NCBI GenBank assembly: GCA_963803975.1 | Contig: CAWDOY010000047.1 | Location: 112,096-176,095 of the forward strand | Length of the DNA: 64,000 nucleotides | From: an uncultured delta proteobacterium | GTDB taxonomy: Bacteria > Desulfobacterota > WTBG01 > CAIYCZ01 | Direction of reading: 5' to 3' | Shown: in pieces, positions 2,775-61,971 of the stretch | How the letters are laid out: each line of letters starts with the position of its first letter | How positions within the stretch are numbered: the first letter of the stretch is position 1 | Notes under the pieces: model-generated | Told to the model about the DNA's origin: nothing | What the model saw: only the letters and a program-made list of their open reading frames with translations | The model's database searches: none | Position numbers and translations under genes: made by a program

Positions 2775-3545
2775 TTAATTTCTCAATACGAAAATCAATC
2801 GCGGTGTAACACTCACCGGCCCGTGTATGGTTGACTCTCCGTTCAGGTCTATATCTTCAAGTTTGTAGTAGGAGGTTTTTCTGTTCTCAACATCTCTATC
2901 AACATACTCATAAGATGCCCCTTGGGTGGATGAGCCCTGAGCAGGGATAAGCGAAGCGTTTATCTTGATGAAATCTCCATCCTTTGTTTCAGAACGGTAG
3001 AGATTAAAGCCAGCATTATCGGTTTCTGCTTCGGTGTTCCATTGCACAATAACTTTTCCAGATTTAGGTGTAGCAGTAAAAGAAGACAAATTAATGAGTG
3101 TTGCTGGTGTAGTTGTTGTGGTGGTGGTCTGCTGAATGGTGGTGGTGATGTTGTTACCACATATTACATCCCAGGTGCCAAGTCTTGTCGAGCACCTATC
3201 AGGATTGAAGACATCAGGACAAACTTTATAATCCCAAGAGCCGTCTATACAAACGCTATAACCTGAACCACTCCGGTGACAACCAATACTGGAGATTTGA
3301 CATTGGTCAGAAGTATTCCAATAAAAATTACAATTACAAAGGTCTAACTCACACTGCCATTGCAGGTCATTAAACAAAACCATAGATAATTCTTGTGCTG
3401 CTTGCGGGGTTCTTGATGTTTCATTTGTTGGCACTGAACCACTCAAATCACCTGTCCATACAATATTACATCCTGCTGATGCCTGCGCAATGTTAAAAAC
3501 AAAGAGTCCGAAAACAATTAAAAATATAACAATAATCTTTTTCAT
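2775..3545 (-). CDS. Secreted modular protein with signal peptide, 10-Cys module, poly-Thr linker and conserved CTD. This is the only apparently intact member of the family.
   Basis: Starts at the internal Met MKKIIVIFLIVFGLFVFNIAQASAGC, with an AGAAAGAGGG RBS. Cys-rich region C-x-C-N-C...CHRSGSGYSVC...C...C. Linker TTTIQQTTTTTTTPATL. CTD FTATPKSGKVIVQWNTEAETDNAGFNLYRSETKDGDFIKINASLIPAQGSSTQGASYEYVDRDVENRKTSYYKLEDIDLNGESTIHGPVSVTPRLIFVLRN. Confidence 0.8.
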   Translation of the reverse strand: MKKIIVIFLIVFGLFVFNIAQASAGCNIVWTGDLSGSVPTNETSRTPQAAQELSMVLFNDLQWQCELDLCNCNFYWNTSDQCQISSIGCHRSGSGYSVCIDGSWDYKVCPDVFNPDRCSTRLGTWDVICGNNITTTIQQTTTTTTTPATLINLSSFTATPKSGKVIVQWNTEAETDNAGFNLYRSETKDGDFIKINASLIPAQGSSTQGASYEYVDRDVENRKTSYYKLEDIDLNGESTIHGPVSVTPRLIFVLRN

Positions 3546-3559
3546 AACTGCCCTCTTTC

Positions 3560-4284
3560 TTAATTTCTCAATCCAAATATCAACCCGGGGTTGCACTCAC
3601 AGGGCCATGCATAGTTGACACTCCGTTCAGGTCTATGTCTTCAAGTTTATAGTAATAAGTCTTTCTGTTCTGGAATTCGATATCAGTAAACTCATAGATT
3701 AGCGCCTTGGGTGGGGGAGCCTTGTGCAGGGATCAGTGAGTGTTTATCTTGGTGTAGTTACCATCCTCTGATTCAGCGCGATAGATGTTAAAGCCGGCGT
3801 TGTCGGTTTCGGATTCGGTGGACCAAGCGAGAATAACGCTTTTTGACTTTGCATAAGCTTTAAAATCCCGCAGCGTAATCAGCGTGCTTGATTCGCAGGT
3901 GCTGTTGATACATTCATAGTTCCCCGCAGTGCACTGATACCCTTCACAAGTTTGAAGATAGCCCATGTCAATAACGCCAGATGTGCAGGTATTGTCTTTA
4001 CTGCAGCAGCCCTGCTGAACTTCCGGCACATAGGTTTTAATAGGTTGCATAACCCCCCTGCAGATGTCGCTACAACACTTTTCCCCCGGATAAAAAGTAC
4101 CTCCTGCATAATTTTCACAAAAGGAGGCTTCATTGAGTGGCGGGGTATCTCCACAACGATAACAGCCCATCATTGGCATATAATAATCGCACGCCCCGGT
4201 GTCCTGGGCATTTGATTTGCCGGATGTAACCAATAGAACAGGAAATATGATTGCAAGTAGAGCTATTATTCTGAGTTTTGCCAT
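3560..4284 (-). CDS. Secreted modular protein paralog with signal peptide, 14-Cys module and CTD. It has two single-base frameshifts, one of them in a T homopolymer.
   Basis: MAKLRIIALLAIIFPVLLVTSGKSNA signal peptide with a GGAGGAGGG RBS. The CTD begins KAYAKSKSVILAWSTESETDNAGFNIYRAESEDGNYTKIN. The remainder (YEFTDIEFQNRKTYYYKLEDIDLNGVSTMHGPVSATPGLIFGLRN) is recovered only by allowing 1-nt shifts, for example ccgggttga where ccgggtttga is expected. Confidence 0.6.
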
Positions 4285-5137: not shown

Positions 5138-6153
5138 TTAATCTAATTTTCTTCCGTCAGCCTGTAAGGCTGCAACTGCTTTTTTAATGTCTTCTTCTGC
5201 ACCACCCCTGATTTTAGGTTTTGCATAGCATCGAAGGGAGATATGAACATTTCCCGGATCTTCAATTAAATCTGCTGTAACAATATGCATGGACAGTGCT
5301 TTTCCATTATATTTTTTTGTCCCAATAAAATATGTATTATAATAGGTTTTTTTATCTTCTTTACATTCAATGTCATTCTGTTTTGCCCAGTCATTTAATA
5401 ATGAGGCTGCCTTGTCAAGATTTGCCTTAACACGCAAACGGGTAAAATAGCATCTTTTATCGCTTTGTGTATTTGTCCATGGCCTTATTGATAATTTGTT
5501 CTTATTTTTATCAGTAAGATTTCCGGGCTGTAATGACTCCCAGAAGCTTCTATATTTTTTTACCTCTTTTTCTTGTAGCGGCGTAAGGGAGAGGATCTTT
5601 GTACGTATGTCATTTGCGAATGCCTCTACCCTTTCAGGAATAAGTGATTCCCACATGTCAAGCCCTGTCCATCCCACTTTATCTGCAGGCATGGTTTTTC
5701 CAAGGATCCATATCAGCCTTGCATCATTTGAATTGAGATAACGGTTTACCTGGCGCCCGCCAAATGCCCCGAGTGTTATTGGTTTTAATTTGGGGAATTT
5801 TTCAAGTGTATCAAAGAAATAACTTCTCCCGCTCGAAAGATGAGGCGGTTTCCCGGGCATGTATATGATTATGGTTTCATCAATTTCACCGCAGGTAAGA
5901 AAGTATGCAATTTCCTTTTTTGTAAGTTCATCATGGAACCTTTCAATAAATTTATATGTTGATTTATGCGGTTTTTCCCATCTTGTGTATCCGCCGATTA
6001 TTACATAGTCATAGGGCTCTACAGTTAAAACTTGATTATACATTTTTACATCCACATGATTTTCAAAGCCGATCAGAGCTTTTAACCAGTATGCAACATC
6101 AGCTGCTGAGCCGTATTGGGTTTCATAAGCTATTAGTCCTTTTTTTCTACCAT
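5138..6153 (-). CDS. Flavodoxin-like-domain protein with a C-terminal domain of unknown function. It has a frameshift in an A7 run near the start.
   Basis: True N-terminus is MVEKKGLIAYETQYGSAADVAYWLKALIG with an AAGGAGGAG RBS. Phosphate-loop-like T..GS, DYVIIGGYTRWEKP and KEIAYFLTCG motifs of the flavodoxin fold. The listed ORF 5138..6055 joins after a 1-nt shift in gaaaaaaagg. Confidence 0.55.
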
Positions 6154-6492: not shown

Positions 6493-6921
6493 TTATGTCG
6501 TCGTCTCGGCACTGGTAAAGCCGGTAAAAACCACCGGGATGATTTGAGAGTATTCAAAGAGAATTACACCCGTTCCGGCAATAAATGCTGTTGGTTCAAA
6601 GGAGGAACCAACCAGAAGCATAATGATGTCGCCTGTTTTGGTTCCGATTTTAGCATTAAGCGAGATATAGGCGCCTGTAAACAGGCTCAAGACGGTAACG
6701 TAAAATCCATCACCCTTAAAACTTGAAATAGTAAGACCGCCGGTATCGCTGAATAAAACCGGTGAGCTGAAAACATCCAGTGAGCAGACGAAATAGCAGA
6801 CGTACTCATTGCCGGTAACAACATTCGGGCCAATACTGTTTTCAGCACGGGCGGTGCTTATGAGTAAACCACCTGCGAGAAGCATACAGCACAATGTAAT
6901 TTTTATTATTTTTCTGTTCAC
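6493..6921 (-). CDS. Secreted hypothetical protein (GTG start)
   Basis: AAGGAGGT RBS 7 nt before GTG. Signal peptide VNRKIIKITLCCMLLAGGLLISTARA. No recognisable domain. Confidence 0.45.
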   Translation of the reverse strand: MNRKIIKITLCCMLLAGGLLISTARAENSIGPNVVTGNEYVCYFVCSLDVFSSPVLFSDTGGLTISSFKGDGFYVTVLSLFTGAYISLNAKIGTKTGDIIMLLVGSSFEPTAFIAGTGVILFEYSQIIPVVFTGFTSAETTT

Positions 6922-7003
6922 ACGTACCTCCTTATTTATTTTGTCTGGTATGTCATTATTTAATATGGTTAAAATCCCTGTTTTAGAAACTGACAGGGTT
7001 CCT

Positions 7004-7825
7004 CTATTTGACTTCCGGGGGCTGAAGCGGGACTTGGAATGGCTCGGCCAGCGTGAAATCAAGGTTGGTTTGAGACGGAATGCGAACTTCCGGACCTTTG
7101 GTCAATGCCTGATATGCTAGAGTTCCACCTGCTCCAACGCTCGCACCAATGGCTGCACCCTTGCCTCCGCCGAAAATTCCTCCAATTATTGCACCCGCCC
7201 CACCTCCAAGCACTGTCCTTTTGGCAGTCTGCTCACCGCGAGATGCGCTCTTATGTCGCACACTGCTGCTGTTTAACAGAATGGACTGCCCCTGTACAAC
7301 CAAATGATCCAAAACGACTTCAAGCTCACTTGAACCCTTAATGCTTCCTGAGGATTTAGCATTTACCAGTTTGATATACACATCAGTTCCCTTGGGTATA
7401 ACGACCTGATTACCAACTGTAATAGGAACATAGAGGGAGGAATGAAACAGGGAGCCAACCTGGCTCGACCTGGAATTAATTGAATCGATCATCTTGACCT
7501 GTATCTCTGTCCCTGCAGGGATCGTGATTACAGTTATTACCTTAATTGCGTCATTGACCTTCTTGATCCCGGGAGTGACACCAGCCAGCTCAACAGCCTT
7601 CTTGTGAATAGCATCATTTGATACCTCGCCTGACAAAGTAGCCTCCCCCTTTGACATGGTAACTTGAATCGATGCGGTCTTCAATTGGGGCTCTGAATAA
7701 AACTTTGCCTGGAGGGCCTGCGTCATTTCCTCATCACTCGGGGTCCTGGAACAGGCTGCGCAACCTAATGCCAAAACGACCAGTAGCAACCAATACGCTG
7801 AAAGATTTTTTAATGTGGTAAGCAT
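7004..7825 (-). CDS. BON-domain lipoprotein with C-terminal glycine-zipper region
   Basis: Lipobox LALGCAAC. BON-like segment QVTMSKGEATLSGEVSNDAIHKKAVELAGVTPGIKKVNDAIKV. C-terminal GGGAGAIIGGIFGGGKGAAIGASVGAGG. Confidence 0.65.
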   Translation of the reverse strand: MLTTLKNLSAYWLLLVVLALGCAACSRTPSDEEMTQALQAKFYSEPQLKTASIQVTMSKGEATLSGEVSNDAIHKKAVELAGVTPGIKKVNDAIKVITVITIPAGTEIQVKMIDSINSRSSQVGSLFHSSLYVPITVGNQVVIPKGTDVYIKLVNAKSSGSIKGSSELEVVLDHLVVQGQSILLNSSSVRHKSASRGEQTAKRTVLGGGAGAIIGGIFGGGKGAAIGASVGAGGTLAYQALTKGPEVRIPSQTNLDFTLAEPFQVPLQPPEVK

Positions 7826-7920
7826 TTTTTAATTCCTTTTTTCGTCTTTGCTTCAACCCAGCAAGTTAAAGGACAACAGCGCACTTTAATGACCCTATCT
7901 GGCAATAAATAAAATGCAGG

Positions 7921-25299: not shown

Positions 25300-25887
25300 T
25301 CACCTTGTGTTTCTGCCCAGCATAAATGCCTTGATATTAACATCAACCAGTTTCGGTGGAAGCATTGAGGAAATGACTTCCTTCCACAGGTTCTCATCCA
25401 CACCAAAATGTTTGGACAGCGCCCCCAGAAAAGCCACATTCAACGCCCGGGCGTTTCCCGCCTGTTTGGCAATATCCAGGGCATCAACAATCTCAACCCG
25501 TGAGAAGCGCTCGCGCAGCAGCTCCGGCAACTGCTCCGGATAGGTATCGACACCCAGGGTAACGGAGGGCGGCAGCACCTTCTGCTTGTTGACAATGAGC
25601 AGCGCATCGCTGCGCAGAAAATCAAGGTAGCGCACGGACTCGAGCAGCTCGAAGGAGAAGAGCACGTCTGCATCACCTTTTTTAATAAGGGGCGAATAGA
25701 CTTTCGGCCCGAACCGGACATGGCTGCTGACGCTTCCCCCGCGCTGCGCCATGCCGTGCACTTCGCTCTTCTTGACATCATGTCCCGCGCGCATCATCAC
25801 TTCCGATATGATTTCGCTGGCAAGGATAACACCCTGTCCCCCCACGCCCACCATGAGAATATTCTGTACCCGGTCAGTTGTTTCCAT
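25300..25887 (-). CDS. iorB: Indolepyruvate:ferredoxin oxidoreductase beta subunit
   Basis: MVGVGGQGVILAS pyruvate/ketoisovalerate oxidoreductase gamma-type fold, ~195 aa. Start overlaps the iorA stop. Confidence 0.85.
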   Translation of the reverse strand: METTDRVQNILMVGVGGQGVILASEIISEVMMRAGHDVKKSEVHGMAQRGGSVSSHVRFGPKVYSPLIKKGDADVLFSFELLESVRYLDFLRSDALLIVNKQKVLPPSVTLGVDTYPEQLPELLRERFSRVEIVDALDIAKQAGNARALNVAFLGALSKHFGVDENLWKEVISSMLPPKLVDVNIKAFMLGRNTR

Positions 25888-27672
25888 CTTTTTTCCTTAT
25901 CGCACCTTTCCTGCAAAGCTGTGAACAGAGTTCGCATCCGATACACAGACTCGGGTTGACGAATGCCTCACCCTTCTTTTTCTTCAGTTCTGCCTGGTCC
26001 TGCGGCAACAGCGTGACCCATTCAAGAGCCGGACAGCCGAGCTGCAGGCAGGCTTTGCAGCCGATGCATTCACTGCTCTCCACATATAACAGGGGCCGCT
26101 GCGCCCCCTTTTCGACCCGCCGGTACAGCACACAGGGAGAGTCGGTAATGATGACCGAGGGCTCAGGCCGGTTGAGCTCCTTTTTGAGGACTGTATTAAG
26201 TTTTTTCAGGTCAAAGGGATCAACCTTTTTGACGTTCTTTATGCCCAGCGCTTTAACAAGTTTTACATAATCAACTTTGGTTGTTTTTTCTTCCCTGATG
26301 GTCATGCCGGTACCGGGGTGGTCCTGCCTGCCGGTCATGGCCGTGGTCCAGTTATCAAGTATTATAATCGTGCAGGCGCCGCGGTTATACGCCACATCAA
26401 GCAGCCCGGTAATACCGGAGTGGAGAAACGTTGAATCCCCGATCACTGCCACCACGCGGCCAAGCGCCGCGCTCCCCAGCGCCTTGTCCAGGCCCATGGC
26501 GTGCCCTATGCTCGCCCCCATGCAGATACAGGTATCAACTGCTTTGAGCGGCGGCAGGCAGGCAAGCGTGTAGCAGCCGATATCACCGGCGACAAACACT
26601 TTCAGTTTATTCAGAGCATAAAACAGCCCCCGGTGCGGGCAGCCCGGACACATGGTGGGCGGCCGCGGCGGAAGATAGGGCAGCGCAGCTCCTTTTTTTT
26701 CTGCCCCGGCGGCCCCGCCGATGCCCTGCTCCGCAGTGCCCGGATCAAATTCCCCGCAGGAGGGAAATACCTCTTTGCCGATTATCTCGATGCCGAGCGC
26801 CTTCACCTGCTCTTCAAAAAACGGGTCAAGCTCCTCAAAGGCGTAGAGCTTTTTCACCTGGCGGGCAAATTCTTTAATCTTCTTTTTGGGAAGGGGATAC
26901 ACCATGCCCAGCTTCAGAAATGAATAGCCGGGGAAGGCCTCCCGTGCGTACTGGTAACAGGTGCCGCTGGCGATAATGCCCACGGACGGGTCCTGCAGTT
27001 CCACGCGGTTTTCCGGCAAAATCTTCAGCAAAGGCTTCCAGATCCTTTATGCGCTGCTCCACCAGGGGGTGGCGCTGCCGCGCGTGGGCAGGGACCATAA
27101 CATATTTGCTCGGCTGTTTTTCCAGGGCGGGCGCGGCAGGGCGCTGCTGCGGCTCAGAGAGCTCTACAATCGATTTGGAATGGGAAACGCGCGTGGTGGT
27201 GCGCACGAATACCGGCGTGTCAAAGCGCTCGCTCAGCTCGAAGGCCAGTTTTAATATAGTCCTTGGCCTCCTGGCTGTCAGCGGGCTCCAGCATGGGGAC
27301 TTTTGCAAACTTTGCGTAATTCCGGTTGTCCTGCTCATTCTGTGAGCTGTGCATCTCCGGGTCATCCGCGGTCACAATGACCAGCCCGCCCTTGATGCCG
27401 GTGTAGGAGACCGTAAACAGCGGGTCTGCCGCTACATTCACCCCCACATGCTTCATGGCGGCAAGGGCCCTGCGGCCGCCGATGGCTGCGCCGGTGGCTA
27501 CCTCCAGCGCGACCTTTTCATTGGGCGACCACTCGGCATAAACGCCTTCGTAGGTGGCCATGTTTTCCAGTATCTCGGTGCTCGGCGTTCCCGGATAGGC
27601 GGTTGCCACTGCCACGCCAGCCTCATACGCACCCCGCGCAATTGCTTCATTTCCCGTGAGAATAACTTTCAT
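25874..27672 (-). CDS. iorA: Indolepyruvate:ferredoxin oxidoreductase alpha subunit. Two frameshifts.
   Basis: N-terminal pyrimidine-binding module (MKVILTGNEAIARGAYEAGV...). TPP-binding GDSTFLHSG...NRGACTIIILDN. Two C-terminal 4Fe-4S motifs CIGCKAC..C and CIGCELCSQLC. The parts lie in three frames (27220-27672, 26874-27365, 25874-27031). Confidence 0.8.
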
Positions 27673-27771
27673 GGCTTTGCTGTCACCTTTCCCGTAGTAT
27701 GGATATTGCGGCTGTGCTGTGCAGCCGAGATTGACAGTCTAATTTTTTTGAACGATTTTTGCAACAGGAAT

Positions 27772-31815: not shown

Positions 31816-31895
31816 AAATAATGATAATGCGACTGGATACTACATTGGTAATGCATGAAAGCCCGTGATCTATAATCTTTACTGGAACCTTATCT

Positions 31896-32052
31896 ACTAT
31901 CAGGTTATTGAAAAAGTAGTTTCTCCCAGGCTGGTCAAAAACATCCAGATGCAAGGCGCGCGAAATCAAGAGGAATGAGGCGTACTTTACAGTACGTCGC
32001 AATGACGAAGGATGAGCGCAACGAAGCAGATGGGCGTTTTTCAACAGCCTGT
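31896..32052. repeat. MITE-like element, copy 1 (~157 bp) with terminal inverted repeats. Copy 2 at 38136-38335.
   Basis: ACTATCAGGT...CAGCCTGATAG-type TIRs. Conserved core TTGAAAAAGT..CCCAGGCTGGTCAAAAACAT.CAGATGCAAGGCGCGCGAAATC..GAGGAATGAGGCGTACTT.AC.GTACGTCGCAATGAC...GCAGATGGG.GTTTTTCAACAGCCTG. Confidence 0.7.
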
Positions 32053-32601
32053 TAGGTGCTGGTCAGTACCTGATTCAGTATTCCCTCGGGGAAGCTTAAA
32101 AACCGCGCTTTTTCCACCTCAATTTTAATAATATCCATGGGAGTTCGGATTGCCTTGAGGTTCATCTGCTTCAGGTCCTGCCGCTCCTCCAGATTCATGA
32201 TTCTCCTGGCCTCTTCGTATAACGGACCATCCTGCGGCTTTATAATGACCGCTTTCCCCCATACCTGCAGGCCGGTCACAGACTGAAACCCGGTGTATTC
32301 ACCCACGATGCTCAGTGATACGTTCGGGTTGTCCCTGATATTTTTTACCTTGCCGCCTCCCTCGGTAAGAATATACAGGGTAAGCCCCCGGCTCCGGTAG
32401 CGCACCGGCGTTGAGCGGGGTATATTCTGCGCGCAGGTGGCCAGGGTGCAGATTTTCTGCTCCTGCAGAAAGCTTATTATCCGTTCCTTTAATTCCTCCT
32501 GCGGTAAGCCGTTTGATTTTTCCCTTCAGTAAGGTTACAAAATCATTTTCAAGCTTTTCATTGTAATCGCTTTCCATGTTTTCCAGGCGTTCATCACTCA
32601 T
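32052..32601 (-). CDS. Pyridoxamine 5'-phosphate oxidase-like FMN-binding protein (general stress protein 26 family), frameshifted
   Basis: N-terminal part MSDERLENMESDYNEKLENDFVTLLKGK and C-terminal part VRYRSRGLTLYILTEGGGKVKNIRDNPNVSLSIV... lie in different frames. Confidence 0.55.
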
Positions 32602-35296: not shown

Positions 35297-38100
35297 CTGC
35301 CGGTCCCGTCAAGTGATGCGAGAACCGCTGCGCACCGCTCGCAGGCTGCAGGGTGTGCTGCGTGCGCGCCAACGCGGGGAGAATATTTCCAGCAGCGACC
35401 GCACTTTTCCCCGGCAGCAGCAGTAATCTCTACCTCGCCATCAGCAACCAGGTTTTCAAAGGAAGCATCGCCGCCGCCTTCTTTTTGTTTGAGGGTGACC
35501 TGGGAAACGATAAAAAGATCGGGGAGTTCCTGCTCGTATTCCTGCAGCCGGAGGTACAGCTTTTCCTGAACACGCAGCGCCACGCATGCCTCAAGGGCAT
35601 TGCCGATCTTTTTTGCGGCGCGCGCCTCCTCCAGACTTTTGAGCACCCGGTCCCGCACCTGCAGCAGAATACTCCAGCGCTCTGCTATCCCACGGTTATT
35701 ATAGTGCTCCGGCAGCACGGAAAAAGACGCAAGATGCACGCTCTCTGCCCTGCCGGCCTGATGCGGAAGATACTTCCAGGCCTCATCAGCAGTAAAGGAG
35801 AGTATCGGCGAGCAGAGCCGCAGCAGGCTTTCAAGCACCATATGGAGCACGGTCTGGGCAGCACGCCGCGACGGGTCAGCGGGGGCTGAGCAGTAGAGGC
35901 GGTCCTTTAAAATATCGAGATACACCGCGCTCATATCATTAATGCAGAAGTTGCTGATGCTGTGGTACACGGTATGAAACTCATATGCCCGGTACGCTTT
36001 AAGCACCCGGGCGGCAAGCGCCTGCAGCTGATGCAGTGCCCACTGGTCAAGCTCCGCAAGGTTTTCATACCGGACGCTGTGCACCGCCGGGTCAAAGTCA
36101 CAGAGATTGCCGAGCAGGAACCGGCAGGTGTTTCTGATTTTTCGATACCCTTCAGAAAGCCGCTTCAGAATGTCGGGCGATATGCGCATGTCCTCACGGT
36201 AGTTTTCCGAGGCTACCCACAGGCGCAGCACTTCTGCGCCATACTGCTTGATGACCTCCTCCGGGGAGATCACGTTTCCTTTGGACTTGGCCATCTTTTC
36301 GCCTTTGCCATCAACCACAAACCCGTGGGTGAGCACCGCGCGATAGGGCGCGCGGCCCCTGGTGCCGACACTTACCAGAAGTGAGCTGTGGAACCAGCCC
36401 CGGTGCTGGTCGCTTCCTTCCAGGTACAGGTCAGCGGGGCTGCCAAGCTGGGGCCTCTTTTCAAGAACCGCTGCATGGCTCACGCCTGAGTCAAACCACA
36501 CGTCAAGGATATCAGTCTCTTTTCTGAACGCACCTGCCCCGCACTGGCCGCACTTCACGCCCGGCGGGAGCAGCTCGGATGCTTCACGGGAAAACCAGAC
36601 GTCACTGCCGTGCTCATCAAAGAGATCTGCCACATGGTTGATGACCGGGACTTCAAGCAGCACCGCGTTGCAGTCGCTGCAGTAAAAGGCCACAATCGGC
36701 ACACCCCAAACCCGCTGCCGTGATATACACCAGTCAGGACGGTTCTCGATCATGCCGTACATGCGCTCCCGCCCCCACGGCGGAATCCAGTCCACCTGCT
36801 GAACGCAGTCAAGCGCCTTTTTCCGCAGGTCATTTTTTTCCATGGATATGAACCACTGCTCGGTGGCGCGAAACACCACCGGGTTTTTGCAGCGCCAGCA
36901 GTGGGGATAGGAGTGGACAATCTCCTCCTCTTTCAGCAGCGCGCCCGCTTCCAGCAGTTTTTTATTAACCGCGGCGTTGGCGTCAAACACAAACTGGCCG
37001 CCGAAAAACTCAACCTCGGGGACAAAGCGGCCGGCATCATCCACCGGCGCGTAAATATCCAGATTATATTTCAGCCCGCTCTCATAGTCTTCCTGTCCGT
37101 GTCCCGGAGCTGTGTGGACACAGCCGGTGCCCGCATCCAGGGTGACATGGGAGCCGAGGATCAGCAGCGACTCCCGCCCGTAGAGCGGATGGCGGCACTT
37201 CATTCCCTCAAGGACGGCTGCGGAAAAAGTTTCTTTAACTGCAAAGTTTTCGATGCCCAGCGTGAGCATGGTCCGCTGCAGCAGGCCCTCGGCAACGATA
37301 AAAACTTCGTCCCCGGCCTGTACGGCAACATAATCAAAGTCCGGGTGCAGGCAAATGGCCAGGTTTGCCGGTATGGTCCATGGCGTTGTCGTCCAGATAA
37401 CGACCGAGACCTTCTCCCCTTTCAGTAACGGCAGCTTGCTGCTGATATCTGAAATGAGCGGAAACTTTACATAGATCGACGGTGAGCGGTGTTCCTGGTA
37501 TTCAACTTCAGCCTCAGCCAGCGCCGTCTGGCAGGACGCGCACCACTGAATGGGCTTCTTCCGTTTATAGACAGAGCCGGCCTGCACAAATTTGCCGAAC
37601 TCCCTGACAATAGTGGCCGAGTAATCCGCGCTCATGGTGAGATACGGGTCAGCCCATTCCCCGAGCACGCCGAGGCGCTTAAATTCCTCGCGCTGTATGC
37701 TCACGAACCGGGCGGCATATTCTCTGCACAGCTTCCGCACTTCCACCTTGGGGATAGAGCCCTTCTTTTTTCCGAGCTCCTTTTCCACCTGCAGCTCGAT
37801 GGGCAGGCCGTGACAGTCCCATCCCGGCACATACCTGGTCTGGTACCCGTCCATGGTCTTTGATTTTATGACAATATCTTTCAGGATTTTATTCAGAGCA
37901 GTGCCGATATGAATATGCCCGTTTGCATAGGGCGGACCGTCATGAAGGATAAATTTTCTGCTGCTGTTATTGAGCGCAATAATTTTTTCATAGAGCCCCG
38001 TTGCTTCCCACTTTTTCAGCATCTCCGGCTCCTTGACTGCAAGGCTTGCCTTCATCGGGAAATCAGTTTTGGGCAGATTTATGGTATCCTTATAATCCAT
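35293..38100 (-). CDS. ileS: Isoleucine--tRNA ligase
   Basis: 935 aa. HIGH-type PYANGHIHIGTALNKI, KMSKS (KMAKSKGN), CP1 editing domain, C-terminal zinc-finger cysteines. Confidence 0.9.
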   Translation of the reverse strand: MDYKDTINLPKTDFPMKASLAVKEPEMLKKWEATGLYEKIIALNNSSRKFILHDGPPYANGHIHIGTALNKILKDIVIKSKTMDGYQTRYVPGWDCHGLPIELQVEKELGKKKGSIPKVEVRKLCREYAARFVSIQREEFKRLGVLGEWADPYLTMSADYSATIVREFGKFVQAGSVYKRKKPIQWCASCQTALAEAEVEYQEHRSPSIYVKFPLISDISSKLPLLKGEKVSVVIWTTTPWTIPANLAICLHPDFDYVAVQAGDEVFIVAEGLLQRTMLTLGIENFAVKETFSAAVLEGMKCRHPLYGRESLLILGSHVTLDAGTGCVHTAPGHGQEDYESGLKYNLDIYAPVDDAGRFVPEVEFFGGQFVFDANAAVNKKLLEAGALLKEEEIVHSYPHCWRCKNPVVFRATEQWFISMEKNDLRKKALDCVQQVDWIPPWGRERMYGMIENRPDWCISRQRVWGVPIVAFYCSDCNAVLLEVPVINHVADLFDEHGSDVWFSREASELLPPGVKCGQCGAGAFRKETDILDVWFDSGVSHAAVLEKRPQLGSPADLYLEGSDQHRGWFHSSLLVSVGTRGRAPYRAVLTHGFVVDGKGEKMAKSKGNVISPEEVIKQYGAEVLRLWVASENYREDMRISPDILKRLSEGYRKIRNTCRFLLGNLCDFDPAVHSVRYENLAELDQWALHQLQALAARVLKAYRAYEFHTVYHSISNFCINDMSAVYLDILKDRLYCSAPADPSRRAAQTVLHMVLESLLRLCSPILSFTADEAWKYLPHQAGRAESVHLASFSVLPEHYNNRGIAERWSILLQVRDRVLKSLEEARAAKKIGNALEACVALRVQEKLYLRLQEYEQELPDLFIVSQVTLKQKEGGGDASFENLVADGEVEITAAAGEKCGRCWKYSPRVGAHAAHPAACERCAAVLASLDGTGR

Positions 38101-38135
38101 TCAATTCTTCCTCCGTAGCAGGATATATCCATGAC

Positions 38136-38335
38136 AGTACTATCAGGTAGTTGAAAAAGTGGTTTTATCCCAGGCTGGTCAAAAACATTCAGATGCAAGG
38201 CGCGCGAAATCTCGAGGAATGAGGCGTACTTCACGGTACGTCGCAATGACACCCCTCTTCATCCCCCCTTGCCAAGGGGGGACACGGGGGGTAGAAGATA
38301 ACGCAGCAGATGGGTGTTTTTCAACAGCCTGATAG
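38136..38335. repeat. MITE-like element, copy 2 (~200 bp), carrying an extra internal hairpin insertion
   Basis: Same TIRs and core as 31896-32052. A ~50-nt insert contains the hairpin cccccttgccaagggggg. Confidence 0.7.
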
Positions 38336-38487
38336 CAGGCCGTAAAAATTACCATATACGGGCACAAAGTCAAGGGAATAGCGTGCAGAAATGGTTCTGC
38401 CAATAATCCTGGACATCTCATTTAAATTATATTATTAGTTTTTCTGATAACAAATAGTAATATAAATACAGCTATATATTTGAAGCA

Positions 38488-38662
38488 ATGCGCCGTCTAA
38501 TCTGTCATTCTACTTTTATTTTTACTTTAGGTACTCTGCCAGTGGTCCGTGAGTAGCGGAGAAGATACTACCAGGCCATGGGCAGAGTTTACCCGCTGCC
38601 CATGGCTTTTTTTATAATTGAAAAAGCCATGGAACCAGATCGTTCATGGCTTTTTTTTATTT
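38488..38662 (+). promoter_or_regulatory. Candidate transcription-attenuation leader upstream of the DAHP synthase gene: a 22-codon leader ORF plus two overlapping terminator hairpins
   Basis: Leader ORF MRRLICHSTFIFTLGTLPVVRE (38488-38556). Hairpin 1 is CCATGGGCAG-n10-CTGCCCATGG followed by T7 (38576-38613). Hairpin 2 is AAAAAGCCATGG-n12-CATGGC followed by T8 (38621-38658). The 3' arm plus T-run of hairpin 1 is exactly complementary to the 5' arm of hairpin 2, giving mutually exclusive structures. Confidence 0.4.
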
Positions 38663-38776
38663 ACGTAACGGTTTCAAACCCAAGCACTCAGAGAAAAACT
38701 CTATATACAATAATTTCTCAGAGTCCTGTGGTTATAGTTTGACAATACTTTGTTTGAGCAGAAGGAGGATACACAG

Positions 38777-39807
38777 ATGATCATAGTTATGAAGGCCAAA
38801 GCATCCGAGAAAGAACTGCAGGAAGTGCTCAACACCATTAAGGAGTTCGGCTACCAGCCGCACCCGATCTATGGAACAGAACGAACCGTAATCGGTGCGG
38901 TGGGAAGCGAGCGGGGCAAGGAAAAACTGCAGGCGCTGGAAATGCTTCCCGGGGTGGAAAAGGTGGTTCCCATCCTCCAGCCCTACAAGCTTGCGAGCCG
39001 TGAGGTAAAACCCGAGAAGTCGGTCATCGCCATCAGCGATACCGTGCAGATCGGCGGCGATGAGGTGGTGGTGATTGCCGGCCCGTGTTCCATAGAAAAC
39101 GAGCAGCAGATCATTGAAACTGCACGTGGCGGTAAAGGATGCCGGGGCAACCATGCTGCGCGGCGGAGCATTCAAACCCCGCACCTCACCCTTACAGCTT
39201 CCAGGGCCTTGAGGGAGAAGGGCTTGTGCTGCTGGATAAGGCGCGGCAGCTTACCGGGCTTCCCGTGGTCACGGAAATAATGAATCTCGAAGACATAGAG
39301 CTGATTTCAAATCACGCGGATATCCTGCAGGTGGGAGCGCGCAATGTTCAGAACTTTGCCCTGCTCAAAGCCCTCGGAAAATGCAGCAAGCCGATCCTGT
39401 TGAAGCGCGGCATGATGACCACTATTGAAGAGTTCCTGATGTCAGCGGAGTATATCCTGTCGGAAGGCAACCAACAGGTCATTCTGTGCGAGCGCGGGAT
39501 ACGGACATTTGAGACCGCCACCCGCAACACCCTTGACCTGAGCAGCATCCCGGTGCTGCGGGAGCGCACCCATCTCCCGGTCATTGTCGACCCCAGCCAT
39601 GGGACCGGCCACTGGAAGCTCGTTGCCCCCATGTCGTTTGCGGCAATTGCCGCAGGTGCTGATGGCCTGATGATAGAAGTGCATCCCCATCCTGATCATG
39701 CCATGAGTGACGGTGTCCAGTCGCTCAAGCCCGGTAAATTTGCAGAGATGATGCAGCGGCTGGTTCCGTTTGTAAAGGCAGCGGGAAGAACGATACGGGA
39801 AGGGTGA
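38777..39807 (+). CDS. aroF: 3-deoxy-7-phosphoheptulonate (DAHP) synthase, type I-beta with N-terminal ferredoxin-like regulatory domain. One frameshift.
   Basis: GAAGGAGGA RBS. N-terminal ACT-like domain [26 protein letters not shown]. Catalytic KPRTSPYSFQGLGE..., [20 protein letters not shown]. The join near 39130-39180 needs a 1-nt shift. Confidence 0.8.
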
Positions 39808-53357: not shown

Positions 53358-54892
53358 TTAAAATTGTTTTTGCCGGCCCCGTGCCGTGATGAACGTTATG
53401 CCCAGTACCGCAAGGCTCAGGAGCGTGCACAGAAGCGCAAAAATATCCCCGAAGCGCGAATAAAAGGTCAGTTCTTTTTCCAGTAAAATAATACCAGCTA
53501 AAGATGCCGGAGTAAAGAGTTTGCTTTGCTGCACGATTCTTCCGCTGGCATCAATAATAGCGCTGATGCCGGTGTTGGCGGCGCGGGCGACAAAGCGGCG
53601 GTTCTCAACCGCGCGCAGCACCACCATGGACAGGTGCTGATAGGGCGCAGCAGTGCGGCCGAACCAGGCGTCATTGGTTATGTTGACCAGAAAGGCTGCT
53701 CCATTCCTTTACAAACCGGCGCACCAGGTCCGGAAATATTATTTCATAGCAGATAAGCGTTCCAAAGCTGCCCCCGGGGAAGCTCAGGTTTTTAACTTCG
53801 CGGCCGGAAGTAAAATCCCCGATACCGACCACCATCTTGTCAATGAACGGGAACAGCTGCTTGAGCGGGACGTATTCACCATAGGGCACCAGATGAATTT
53901 TATCATAGCGCCCGTTAATGGTTCCCTCCGGAGAAACCAGAAACGCGCTGTTAAAATAGTGCGTTTCATTACCGTCATTCTCCCACGCCGGGCTTCCCAG
54001 CAGCAGATATGCACCCAGCCCTGCGCGCAACCGCGGCCACCATTTCCTGATACAGCTTTTCGGACTGAAAAAAGAACGGGGTTGCTGCTTCCGGCCAGAT
54101 AACAAGCGCAGGCTTCTCCGGGGCAGCGGCCAGGGTCAGACTGCTGTAGATGGTCATGGTCTCATCAAGAAATGCAGGGTTCCACTTTACGTCCTGCGCA
54201 ATGTTCCCCTGTACCAGCGCAACCGTCAGCTTTTCACCCTCCTGCCGGTCATAGCGCTCCAGCCGCGCCCGGCCATACAGCAATGAAGCTGCCAGCAGCA
54301 AAACCGTAATGGCAATCAGCTTATACGGAACGGTTTTTTTCAGCGCGAAGGTTTCCAGAAGAACAAAAATGACCCCGTTTACCAGAACCAGTAAGAAGCT
54401 GATGCCATAGACGCCGGTTATATCCGCAATCTGTATCACCGGAAGCGCCAGGAACTGGGAGTAGCCGAGGTTCTCCCAGGGAAAACCGGTAAGAAACCAC
54501 GATTTTATGTATTCGCCTGCAGTCCAGAAAAACGGCAGCGTCGCAATGACAGCGATTCCCTGCCTGCGTTCCACATAGCAGCTGCACCACACCGGAGCCC
54601 CGATAAAAAGGCTCAGGTAGGCGGCAAATAAAATGAGCACCAGAATTGAGAGCGCAGCGTTCATTTTACCATAGGTGGTCATGGAGACCGTCACCCAGTA
54701 GACCAGGCCCAGGTTAAACACCAGTCCGGTAACCGCGCCAAGAATACAGCCCTGCGAGGCATCCTTGCCCCTGACCGCCCAGAGCAGCGGCACAAGGCTC
54801 ACCCAGGCCAGGGCAAACAGGTTCCATTGGGGAAAGCTGAGGATCAGCAGCAGGCCTGAAATGGAAGCTAATAAATAGTCTTTTACCTTCAT
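53358..54892 (-). CDS. lnt: Apolipoprotein N-acyltransferase, split by two frameshifts
   Basis: N-terminal 6-TM region, then a CN-hydrolase domain (ALVQGNI...WPE...ICYE..F). The three pieces are 53975-54892, 53671-54105 and 53358-53627. Confidence 0.8.
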
Positions 54893-55016
54893 TACTCTTG
54901 AAAAATACTTGCCATTATGACTTCATCTGTATTAGAGTGTAGACCCTGTCGAATAGAATCGAGCGCTGACCTGCACACCATTTCATGTATATGATTAAAT
55001 TCTTACAGGAGTTTTT

Positions 55017-60475: not shown

Positions 60476-61802
60476 TTAATAGTTCGGATACCCTGCCCGG
60501 GAGGCCGGCTTCATCATGGTAGTTGCCATCTCGGGCCGGAACATGGCGATCTTTTTCGCCAGAGCGGGGCGTTCCTGCTTGATCCGCTCAATATGCGGCT
60601 GTATGCCGATCATTACCCGCTCATAGAGCTTGAACGGGTTCATGGTCCAGGGCAGCTTCTGCGTGACAATCTGATGCAAATAGTTGTGCTCATCTTCAGT
60701 AAACAGGCGGTTAAAAACCGGGTAGCAGAGAAACTCCTTGTAATCATGGGTTTCAAGCCAGTTGCGCTGCCACCACTCGATATAATCCATGACCCCTTCC
60801 CGGCCGGGCTGTCCCGCTGTGCAATGCCGTGCAGACCGCATGGGCGGCCTTGTGGCCGGACAGCAGCGCGCCGGTGTTTTCCGCCTCGGCAAACCAGCAG
60901 CTGTCCCCGACAAACAGCACGTTGTCCTTGAACGGTTCCTTTGCCGGGCTCCAGTTGTTGATAACCGCGCAGCGCTTATGGGTCACCTGGACATTATGAA
61001 ACCATTTTTTAAACGGGCTTTTCTGGACAAAATACTCGAACCGCTCCGCGCTTTGGATATAGAGCCAGTACTCGTCATCGCGGTAAACGCTCGGCAGCAT
61101 GGAAAAAGGAAATGTGCCGCGCCCGCTGGGGCCTGGGCAGATGCCGAGGAAAATGACCTCGGAGCGATCAAACTTGACCCCGGTTATATAATAGCTGATC
61201 GCCTTGCCGGTGTTGCAGAACACCCGGTCCTTATTCAACCCGAGCTTTCGTGCCAGCCGTGAATTTGCGCCATCCGCAGCAATGCAGAAGGTCCCGGTAA
61301 ATTTCTCACCGCTGGTTGTCAATACCTCAACGCCCTGAGCGGTTTTGCGGGCATCTATCACGTTGCGCTCAAGATAATAGGTAACGCCTGCCTTTTTTCC
61401 CTCGGCATACAAACCGCCCAGCAGAACACCCTTGTCAAAAACCACTGCCGGGATTCCCGCACCTGTTGCATTGGCTTCATAGTCGCCGATCTCGATCCGG
61501 TCTTCTGCATTGGGGGCAATGAAATGGCATCCGTAAAATTCCCGGTAGGTACCCGGATAGTTAACCGTGAAATTATTGACCGGGAACACCCATTTTTTTG
61601 TTTCACGGGAAAAGTACATCCGTTCATTATAGAACGAATCCATGTTCATCAGAAACATCTGGGCGCAGGAGCGCTGAATTTTTCCGGGATCAGTTTTCCG
61701 CTCCAGAAGAGCAACCGCGAGTCCGTTTTCAGCCGCGGTCTTTGCAGCTTCCAGCCCTGAAGTGCCGCCGCCCACCACTATGAGATCAAACTTTTTTGCC
61801 AT
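60476..61802 (-). CDS. FAD-dependent oxidoreductase, geranylgeranyl-reductase/FixC-like family, paralog 2 (one frameshift)
   Basis: ~70% identical to paralog 1. DLIVVGGGTSGLEAAKTAAENG, CIAADGANSRLAR, GDSCWFAEAENTGALLSGH. Confidence 0.7.
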
Positions 61803-61971
61803 AACAAACTCCAGACTTTTCAGATAACACTATACCCGGTCTTTACCGGGCACACCATACCATAACCATGCGGGGTTAAAAAGTAGAATTTGCATCCCGT
61901 GATGATGGGGTGCTGTCCATTGCTTGCCCGCCGTAGCTTTATGCGAAGGCGGGTTGACTATTGCCTGCTGC

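Follow-up and report, generated by a model that had tools for sequence, protein, structure and literature searches.

A candidate leader-peptide transcription attenuator with repeated CCAUGG cores upstream of aroF in an uncultured delta proteobacterium and its relatives

What controls a DAHP synthase gene that is preceded by a short open reading frame and two terminator-like hairpins? The question is raised by a 64,000-nucleotide stretch of DNA from an uncultured delta proteobacterium (the whole of which is called the window here), in which aroF lies at 38777-39807 on the + strand, behind the ribosome-binding site AAGGAGG (38762-38768). Its product is a type I-beta DAHP synthase; the match to the Thermotoga maritima enzyme 1RZM (E = 5e-105) is full-length and takes in the N-terminal regulatory domain. 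The initial annotation had placed a 22-codon ORF about 220 nt upstream of aroF and had proposed that an attenuator dependent on this leader ORF governs the gene. The ORF is indeed present at 38488-38556 (+ strand), the aroF start lying 221 nt past its stop codon. As argued below from sequence comparison, the element very probably functions as a ribosome-mediated (leader-peptide) transcription attenuator of aroF; the proposal gains strength from the presence of the element at about 30 loci, from covariation in both of its folds and from a Trp-specific paralogue.

Two hairpins, T1 and T2, sit between the upstream ORF (uORF) and aroF. They had been put at 38576-38613 and 38621-38658, both built on CCATGG, and they are found as placed, each with its T tract. 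The arms of the first (38575-38585 and 38596-38606) are 11 nt long and 100% complementary, then comes T7 at 38607-38613; those of the second (38621-38631 and 38645-38655) are likewise 11 nt long and 100% complementary, then comes T8 at 38651-38658. In terms of segments, all on the + strand, B (38574-38587) and C with its U7 tract (38596-38613) form the intrinsic terminator T1, while D (38621-38632) and E with its U8 tract (38645-38658) form the intrinsic terminator T2. The 3' arm and T-run of the first hairpin had also been described as exactly complementary to the 5' arm of the second, and this pairing extends over 12 of 12 bp, 100% complementary, between 38600-38611 and 38621-38632 (CCATGGCTTTTT / AAAAAGCCATGG). 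It makes D an alternative partner of C (antiterminator 2). The initial annotation overlooked a fifth segment, A (38533-38548), which falls within the final codons of the leader ORF, can pair with B as the 5' arm of antiterminator 1, and provides the link from translation to folding. The longer arm around A (38533-38555), within the 3' end of the ORF, is complementary to 38566-38588. A:B and B:C are mutually exclusive, and C:D is incompatible with B:C as well as with D:E. Since B, C, D and E each contain the self-complementary core CCAUGG, each is able to pair with either neighbour. The classical 1:2/2:3/3:4 geometry originally suggested for the leader is thus right as regards mutually exclusive pairings, but the first hairpin is not simply a 1:2 hairpin: both hairpins are terminators placed under one decision.

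The helices have calculated energies of -26.5 kcal/mol (A:B), -24.7 kcal/mol (B:C, terminator T1), -18.7 kcal/mol (C:D, 12/12 bp) and -16.4 kcal/mol (D:E, terminator T2). A comparison of alternative structures had been recommended in the initial annotation. When the pairs are enforced, the two mutually exclusive folds come out at -50.5 kcal/mol (A:B + C:D) and -51.4 kcal/mol (B:C + D:E), a gap of less than 1 kcal/mol; such near-isoenergetic folds match what is expected of a switch. For the 301-nt leader the z-score of folding is -3.97, and none of 100 shuffles folds as well. A simple terminator scan of the window called neither T1 nor T2, only because their loops exceed the 8-nt limit of the scan. 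The upstream neighbour of the leader, ileS, is on the opposite strand, and there is no + strand gene here in need of a terminator. Downstream, 118 nt separate T2 from aroF in the lineage of the window, a spacer that most relatives do not have and that holds an extra, lineage-specific hairpin (38677-38733, + strand). This hairpin is present in the related locus L001, and in another, L068, its loop carries an insertion of about 200 nt.

Which reading frame would a ribosome follow through the leader? The ORF as encoded, in the frame of the ATG at 38488 (38488-38556, MRRLICHSTFIFTLGTLPVVRE; leader peptides given without an ellipsis end at a stop codon), has an F-I-F group as its only aromatic cluster, and this frame is not kept in relatives. 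The peptide of the ATG frame (MRRLICHSTFIFTLG...) had been taken for the leader, and the leader had been judged poor in regulatory codons. Both statements have to be revised: the conserved frame is the +2 frame, which ends in SNLSFYFYFYFRYSASGP and reads FYFYFYFRY, that is, 8 aromatic residues in 9 consecutive codons. This ancestral frame (APSNLSFYFYFYFRYSASGP, 38490-38552, + strand, with the aromatic cluster at 38508-38534 and the stop TGA at 38550-38552) is homologous to the leaders of L068, a metagenome contig in which ileS is placed as in the window, and of L001. These two leaders are intact and near-identical to that of the window (MHQSNLSFYFFYFRYSASGP in L068, MRQSNLYFYFRYSASGP in L001), which is one base short in codon 3, at about 38495. 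Clustered end-product codons are therefore found in a short uORF, though no start codon lies in the ancestral frame as assembled, the ATG at 38488 being off by 1 nt. The stop of the ATG frame lies 4 nt past the ancestral stop, and a ribosome translating that frame as written would still cover A.

The offset in the leader is probably an assembly indel, since several other genes of the window are split as well. aroF is broken into three frames by 1-nt insertions near 39123 and near 39192, neither of them present in L001 or L068; lnt (53674-54922, - strand) has LNT_N and a truncated CN_hydrolase domain in different frames; and an iorA-like 2-oxoacid:ferredoxin oxidoreductase gene (25877-27738, - strand), with POR_N and TPP_enzyme_C in different frames, is spread over three. 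The assembly of the window seems to carry many indel errors. The stretch between the two aroF insertions (39115-39200 region) is unusually diverged at synonymous sites. Programmed frameshifting that would join the ATG to the aromatic frame was considered and set aside: reading the U-rich run by eye gave no convincing slippery heptamer, and an assembly error is simpler. Elsewhere in the window, more same-strand overlapping ORF pairs are seen, for example at 6493-7828 and 60476-61829.

A tentative leader promoter (38410-38438, + strand) consists of TGGACA, a 17-nt spacer and TATTAG, with 9 of 12 matches, and occupies the same position as the TTGACA-17-TACTAT promoter of L068. A consensus scan of the window reported no + strand promoter, and the leader box is weak. 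The same scan also missed evident TTGACA promoters in relatives, which were found by a script instead. Since it overlooked T1 and T2 through its loop limit and found no + strand promoter, the consensus promoter and terminator scan is uninformative for the window. The weak + strand promoter and the ATG displaced by 1 nt from the aromatic codons are nonetheless points against an attenuator at this locus. One alternative is that the family element is an attenuator but that the copy in the window is a decaying relic, the leader deletion and the aroF insertions being real, so that the element would have no functional gene left to regulate. Three indels within about 700 nt, none of them in L001 or L068, would fit such decay, as would the degeneration of the promoter (TGGACA / TATTAG) relative to that of L068. 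However, the segments A to E are undamaged and differ little from their counterparts in L001 and L068, and the splitting of lnt and the iorA-like gene across frames points to assembly indel errors, so that we regard the relic explanation as unlikely. On the minus strand, a promoter-like site facing ileS was noted at 38426-38453 (TTGTTA, 16 nt, TATAAT; 10 of 12 matches). An Rfam search found neither a T-box nor any other leader for the divergent ileS.

Conservation of the leader upstream of aroF orthologs, which had been put forward as a way of checking the attenuator, was found. A scan with the repaired AroF protein, limited to one genome per species, gave 67 loci, and in about 30 of these, all related Desulfobacterota loci, the element recurs immediately in front of aroF. 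They belong to uncultured Desulfobacteria, Syntrophales, Geobacter and Desulfarculaceae, and their AroF proteins are 60-96% identical to that of the window. The uORFs of these relatives (e.g. MRQSSISRFFWFYFNFSPSAGGA, MLRTYFWFYFYFRHALPVAT, MGRNLNVNYWFSYFYFGGSVCPSLMSS and MELNRFFNAYYFFFWFGFYFRPSARVEV) contain 5-12 F/Y/W codons per leader, Trp codons included. A uORF with at least six F/Y/W in 10 residues occurs in 54% of 59 aroF upstream regions, as against 2% of 1180 dinucleotide shuffles. In most relatives, a TTGACA-16/18-TATAAT-like promoter precedes the uORF by 20-60 nt. T2 and the aroF ribosome-binding site are in most of them a mere 10-35 nt apart, too short a distance to hold a separate aroF promoter. 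In L064 and L029 the scan did report T2-type terminators. In L034, two tandem aroF genes, followed by aroB, each possess an attenuator of their own (3720-3910, MMNKSYYWYFFIIVCPWAGGG; 5139-5327, MIHKNYYYWCFYTNVCPLADGG).

Have the two folds been maintained by selection for pairing? An alignment of 26 leaders (A1), in which pairs were counted for each fold, bears on this point. In the terminated fold, B:C + D:E, 91.9% of the cells are paired over the 26 sequences, 10 pairs are changed on both sides and 58 cells are changed on both sides, with a covariation score of 0.328; none of 500 shuffles did as well by any of these three measures of change. Sliding the partners by 1-3 columns brings pairing down to 25-56%. 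In the antiterminated fold, A:B + C:D, 82.1% of the cells are paired over the same 26 sequences, and sliding by 1-3 columns reduces this to 27-44%. Here 30 cells are changed on both sides (reached by 1 of 500 shuffles) and the covariation score is 0.205 (0 of 500 shuffles); the number of pairs changed on both sides is 7, a value that 251 of the 500 shuffles also reached. The swaps in the antiterminated fold include GC (16 sequences) for CG (10) at columns 34/103, and CG (9) for UA (9) at columns 47/90. Helix by helix across the family, A:B is 80.7% paired in the 26 sequences, with GC/CG and CG/UA swaps, C:D 84% and B:C 98.6%, and 8 of the 14 pairs of D:E show changes on both sides. RNAalifold, unaided, predicted B:C and D:E. 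A covariance model built from the relatives (R1) gives the window 127.5 bits (E = 3e-22) and its minus strand 32.5 bits. This difference, together with the frequent G-U pairs found across the family, assigns the structure to the + strand RNA. A U tract follows B:C in 20 of the 26 members; it is absent in six (the L004 clade, L011 and L002), and B:C in these six is presumably a relay hairpin only, leaving D:E as the sole terminator.

These results also bear on whether the CCATGG palindromes could act as DNA, being operators, clusters of restriction sites or a repeat element. Four CCATGG-like palindromes within about 85 bp might suggest as much. But the core is replaced in relatives while the pairing stays (by CCGUGG/CCACGG, or in Geobacter by CCGGGG/CCCGG), the G-U pairs that are common in the family would be A-C mismatches on the opposite strand, and there is only one copy in the 64 kb; a role at the DNA level is hardly credible. 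An origin of the CCATGG hairpins in a repeat or MITE was rejected on the ground that they occupy a single locus in the window.

For the position of a ribosome to select between the folds, the uORF has to be suitably placed, and the geometry of the 26 sequences is consistent with this: the distance from the end of the aromatic cluster to A is -1 to 12 nt, that from the end of A to the stop codon is 2-14 nt in all 26 (2 nt in the window), and that from the stop codon to B is 14-36 nt. From this spacing and from the footprint of a ribosome we infer the direction of regulation; A:B may also play a part in the pausing of RNA polymerase. Transcription would begin upstream of the uORF, in the middle of which lies the run of Phe and Tyr codons (joined by Trp codons in relatives). 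In fold 1, B:C + D:E, two successive intrinsic terminators would be presented, each with a U tract after it; in fold 2, A:B + C:D, one arm of each terminator would be sequestered. When charged aromatic tRNAs are ample, the ribosome would reach the stop codon and cover A but not B. With A covered, B would pair with C and RNA polymerase would terminate at T1, any read-through then meeting T2. When Phe-tRNA or Tyr-tRNA is scarce, the ribosome would stall in the aromatic cluster upstream of A and leave A free. A:B would then form as soon as B is made, C would pair with D, E would stay unpaired, and both terminators would be bypassed, allowing aroF to be transcribed. If the leader were not translated at all, A:B should form and read-through is predicted, because the leader has no hairpin of the 1:2 type. 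One feature of the geometry tells against this scheme: the final one or two codons of the aromatic cluster lie directly against A, and a ribosome stalled there would partly cover A, which would not favour read-through. An even chain like that of his leaders would require a sixth segment, upstream of A, but the alignment contains no conserved complement to A within the uORF.

The same helices might instead end an independent small unit, an sRNA or small-protein gene closed by tandem terminators, with aroF expressed from its own downstream promoter. The 118 nt between T2 and aroF in the window lineage would accommodate such an arrangement, and a second promoter might conceivably lie in this spacer, which counts to that extent against attenuation as the sole control. 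Sub-threshold matches to sRNA families were also obtained, and terminated attenuator leaders that act in trans are known, for instance Sinorhizobium rnTrpL (PMC7968998). Against this explanation, the consensus scan reported no + strand promoter-like site between T2 and aroF, T2 abuts the aroF ribosome-binding site in most relatives, the element is always linked to aroF or trp genes, and A:B and C:D, which a plain terminator pair would not need, have been kept with covariation. We consider an independent unit extremely unlikely.

The initial annotation had left open that the signal might equally be sensed by a protein or a ligand. In such a case, the leader would be an antiterminator controlled by a riboswitch, a T-box or an RNA-binding protein, leaving the uORF without a part in the decision. 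The expression platform of a riboswitch does indeed also consist of alternative terminator and antiterminator folds, and there is weak, sub-threshold Rfam similarity to two-hairpin motifs (trpB motif, 32 bits; VrrA, 36 bits). But searches of positions 37900-38900 of the window at E <= 10 returned no riboswitch or T-box, nor Trp_leader, Phe_leader, His_leader or another leader family, and none of 15 related loci matched any Rfam family at its gathering score. For the trpB motif RF04312, which has a gathering score of 59, the window scores 32.0 bits and L008 24.7 bits. VrrA (RF01456) scores 36.4 bits for a threshold of 50, in an alignment that covers two hairpins and a U tract only. Neither family can therefore claim the element as a member, and we set these matches aside, along with one to Qrr, as generic two-hairpin resemblances. 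RF04312 is itself a riboswitch candidate of Firmicutes and Fusobacteria (PMC11109978). Like the present element, it has two hairpins, the second a terminator, and is associated with amino-acid genes; it differs in consensus, taxa and gene context. The alignment of 26 has no conserved unpaired core resembling an aptamer, and no ligand- or tRNA-binding core was matched in Rfam; what is conserved outside the stems is the aromatic codon run, with its frame and the position of the stop codon.

The most telling observation concerns a second copy of the scaffold. In L007, L008, L009, L010 and L057, model R1 finds a divergently oriented copy with the same CCAUGG/CCGUGG scaffold (at 3326-3499, - strand, in L008). 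This copy has a uORF containing WWWW (e.g. MNGKEISYDYNNNWWWWNNY...) and lies upstream of trpB2-trpE, so that the change of the codon run to WWWW goes with a change of the regulated genes to trp. The Trp codons of L008 are 22 nt upstream of A, a distance at which a stalled ribosome would clearly leave A free. An unchanged scaffold with what appears to be an altered amino-acid specificity is the strongest support for sensing by a ribosome. With the codon run conserved in one set of loci and exchanged along with the genes in the other, control by a ligand or a protein is very unlikely, and the initial suggestion that it might equally apply is not borne out.

How does this putative attenuator compare with those already described? 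As in the trpL and pheL leaders of E. coli, a ribosome at the stop codon would block the antiterminator and one stalled on regulatory codons would permit it; the WWWW paralogue upstream of trpB2-trpE is a direct counterpart of trpL. Unlike these leaders, the element has no counterpart of segment 1 and hence no 1:2 hairpin, its regulatory codons are upstream of the first segment and not inside it, and the outcome predicted for an untranslated leader is read-through rather than super-attenuation. The his leader of Salmonella and E. coli uses a chain of alternative hairpins, A:B, C:D and E:F versus B:C and D:E. The resemblance lies in the relay of a single decision, taken by the position of the ribosome, through mutually exclusive helices; the chain described here differs in being composed of four copies of one self-complementary core and in having, in most members, two U-tract terminators and not one.

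Attenuation of a DAHP synthase gene has precedents. In the aroR-aroF system of Corynebacterium glutamicum, a leader peptide with Phe-Tyr-Phe precedes the DAHP synthase gene and ribosome stalling raises transcription (Neshat et al. 2014, summarized in PMC11802643). The analogy, an aromatic-codon leader upstream of a DAHP synthase gene, is a functional one drawn from descriptions. By that summary, aroR differs in belonging to the Actinobacteria and in having three regulatory codons, compared with 5-12 F/Y/W codons, five segments and usually two terminators here. In Acholeplasma, a predicted uORF with Phe codons, uORFC-13-1, adjoins an intrinsic terminator and occurs nowhere but upstream of aroF (Brewer et al. 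2021, PMC8632094). Judged by its description, it is a different motif, limited to Acholeplasma and environmental sequences, and the Rfam searches of the window and 15 relatives gave no match to a counterpart of it. A literature search for an aroF or aromatic attenuator in Geobacter, Desulfovibrio and other deltaproteobacteria found none, within a coverage that is incomplete and in a field where earlier comparative-genomics predictions may exist.

In several other phyla, too, aroF is preceded by aromatic uORFs (e.g. MNNTRKNYFYFWFFYCEQRS) accompanied by intrinsic terminators, the RNA scaffolds being unrelated. They were seen in Leptospira (L056, L058 and L059), Vallitalea (L046), Aeoliella (L065) and Athalassotoga/Mesoaciditoga (L062/L066), and in L054, L055 and L061; Clostridia MAGs likewise have an aromatic uORF and a terminator upstream of aroF on an unrelated scaffold. 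The recurrence of aromatic uORFs on unrelated scaffolds suggests that the strategy is widespread.

The mechanism proposed here is of a well-known kind, and the element leaves the general understanding of attenuation unchanged, but the family, conserved in bacteria of the sulfate-reducer type, appears to be new. Its notable traits are that the leader mixes F, Y and W codons, that one palindromic core is used four times to build the relay, that two terminators are coupled, and that the scaffold recurs with a Trp leader. The mixed leader would allow one DAHP synthase to answer transcriptionally to all three end products, Phe, Tyr and Trp, and attenuation would thereby complement the feedback inhibition exerted through the N-terminal regulatory domain of the enzyme. 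In Desulfobacteria, Syntrophales and Geobacter, a large group most of which is uncultured, a concrete regulatory mechanism can thus be proposed for the first step towards the aromatic amino acids. A broader reading is that the element represents an undescribed, modular attenuator chassis of the Desulfobacterota, in which four copies of the CCAUGG core and a segment of the uORF relay one ribosome decision to two terminators, and which has been re-used with F/Y/W codons (aroF), with a run of W codons (trpB2-trpE) and possibly with others. We give this generalization about an even chance of being correct. If it is, loss of leader translation would result in constitutive read-through, the opposite of the behaviour of E. 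coli trp, and the palindromic-core relay with its Trp re-use would make a clean natural example of a modular attenuator. The element could be entered in RNA family databases and help the annotation of leaders and small ORFs in metagenome-assembled genomes.

Two minor observations concern the surroundings of aroF. One locus, L013, has an aroF leader (3786-3982) with a T2-like CCATGG terminator and without an aromatic uORF; in the front half of this leader another structured sequence is found, which had no match in an Rfam search and may be a different sensor. In the window, the ileS-aroF intergenic region contains a MITE-like element of about 200 nt (38138-38335) with the terminal inverted repeats CTATCAGGTAGTTGAAAAA / TTTTTCAACAGCCTGATAG, at a site that is empty in L068. 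A second MITE-like copy, 91% identical, is present at 31895-32055, and related copies occur near aroF in L057, L010, L026 and L003.
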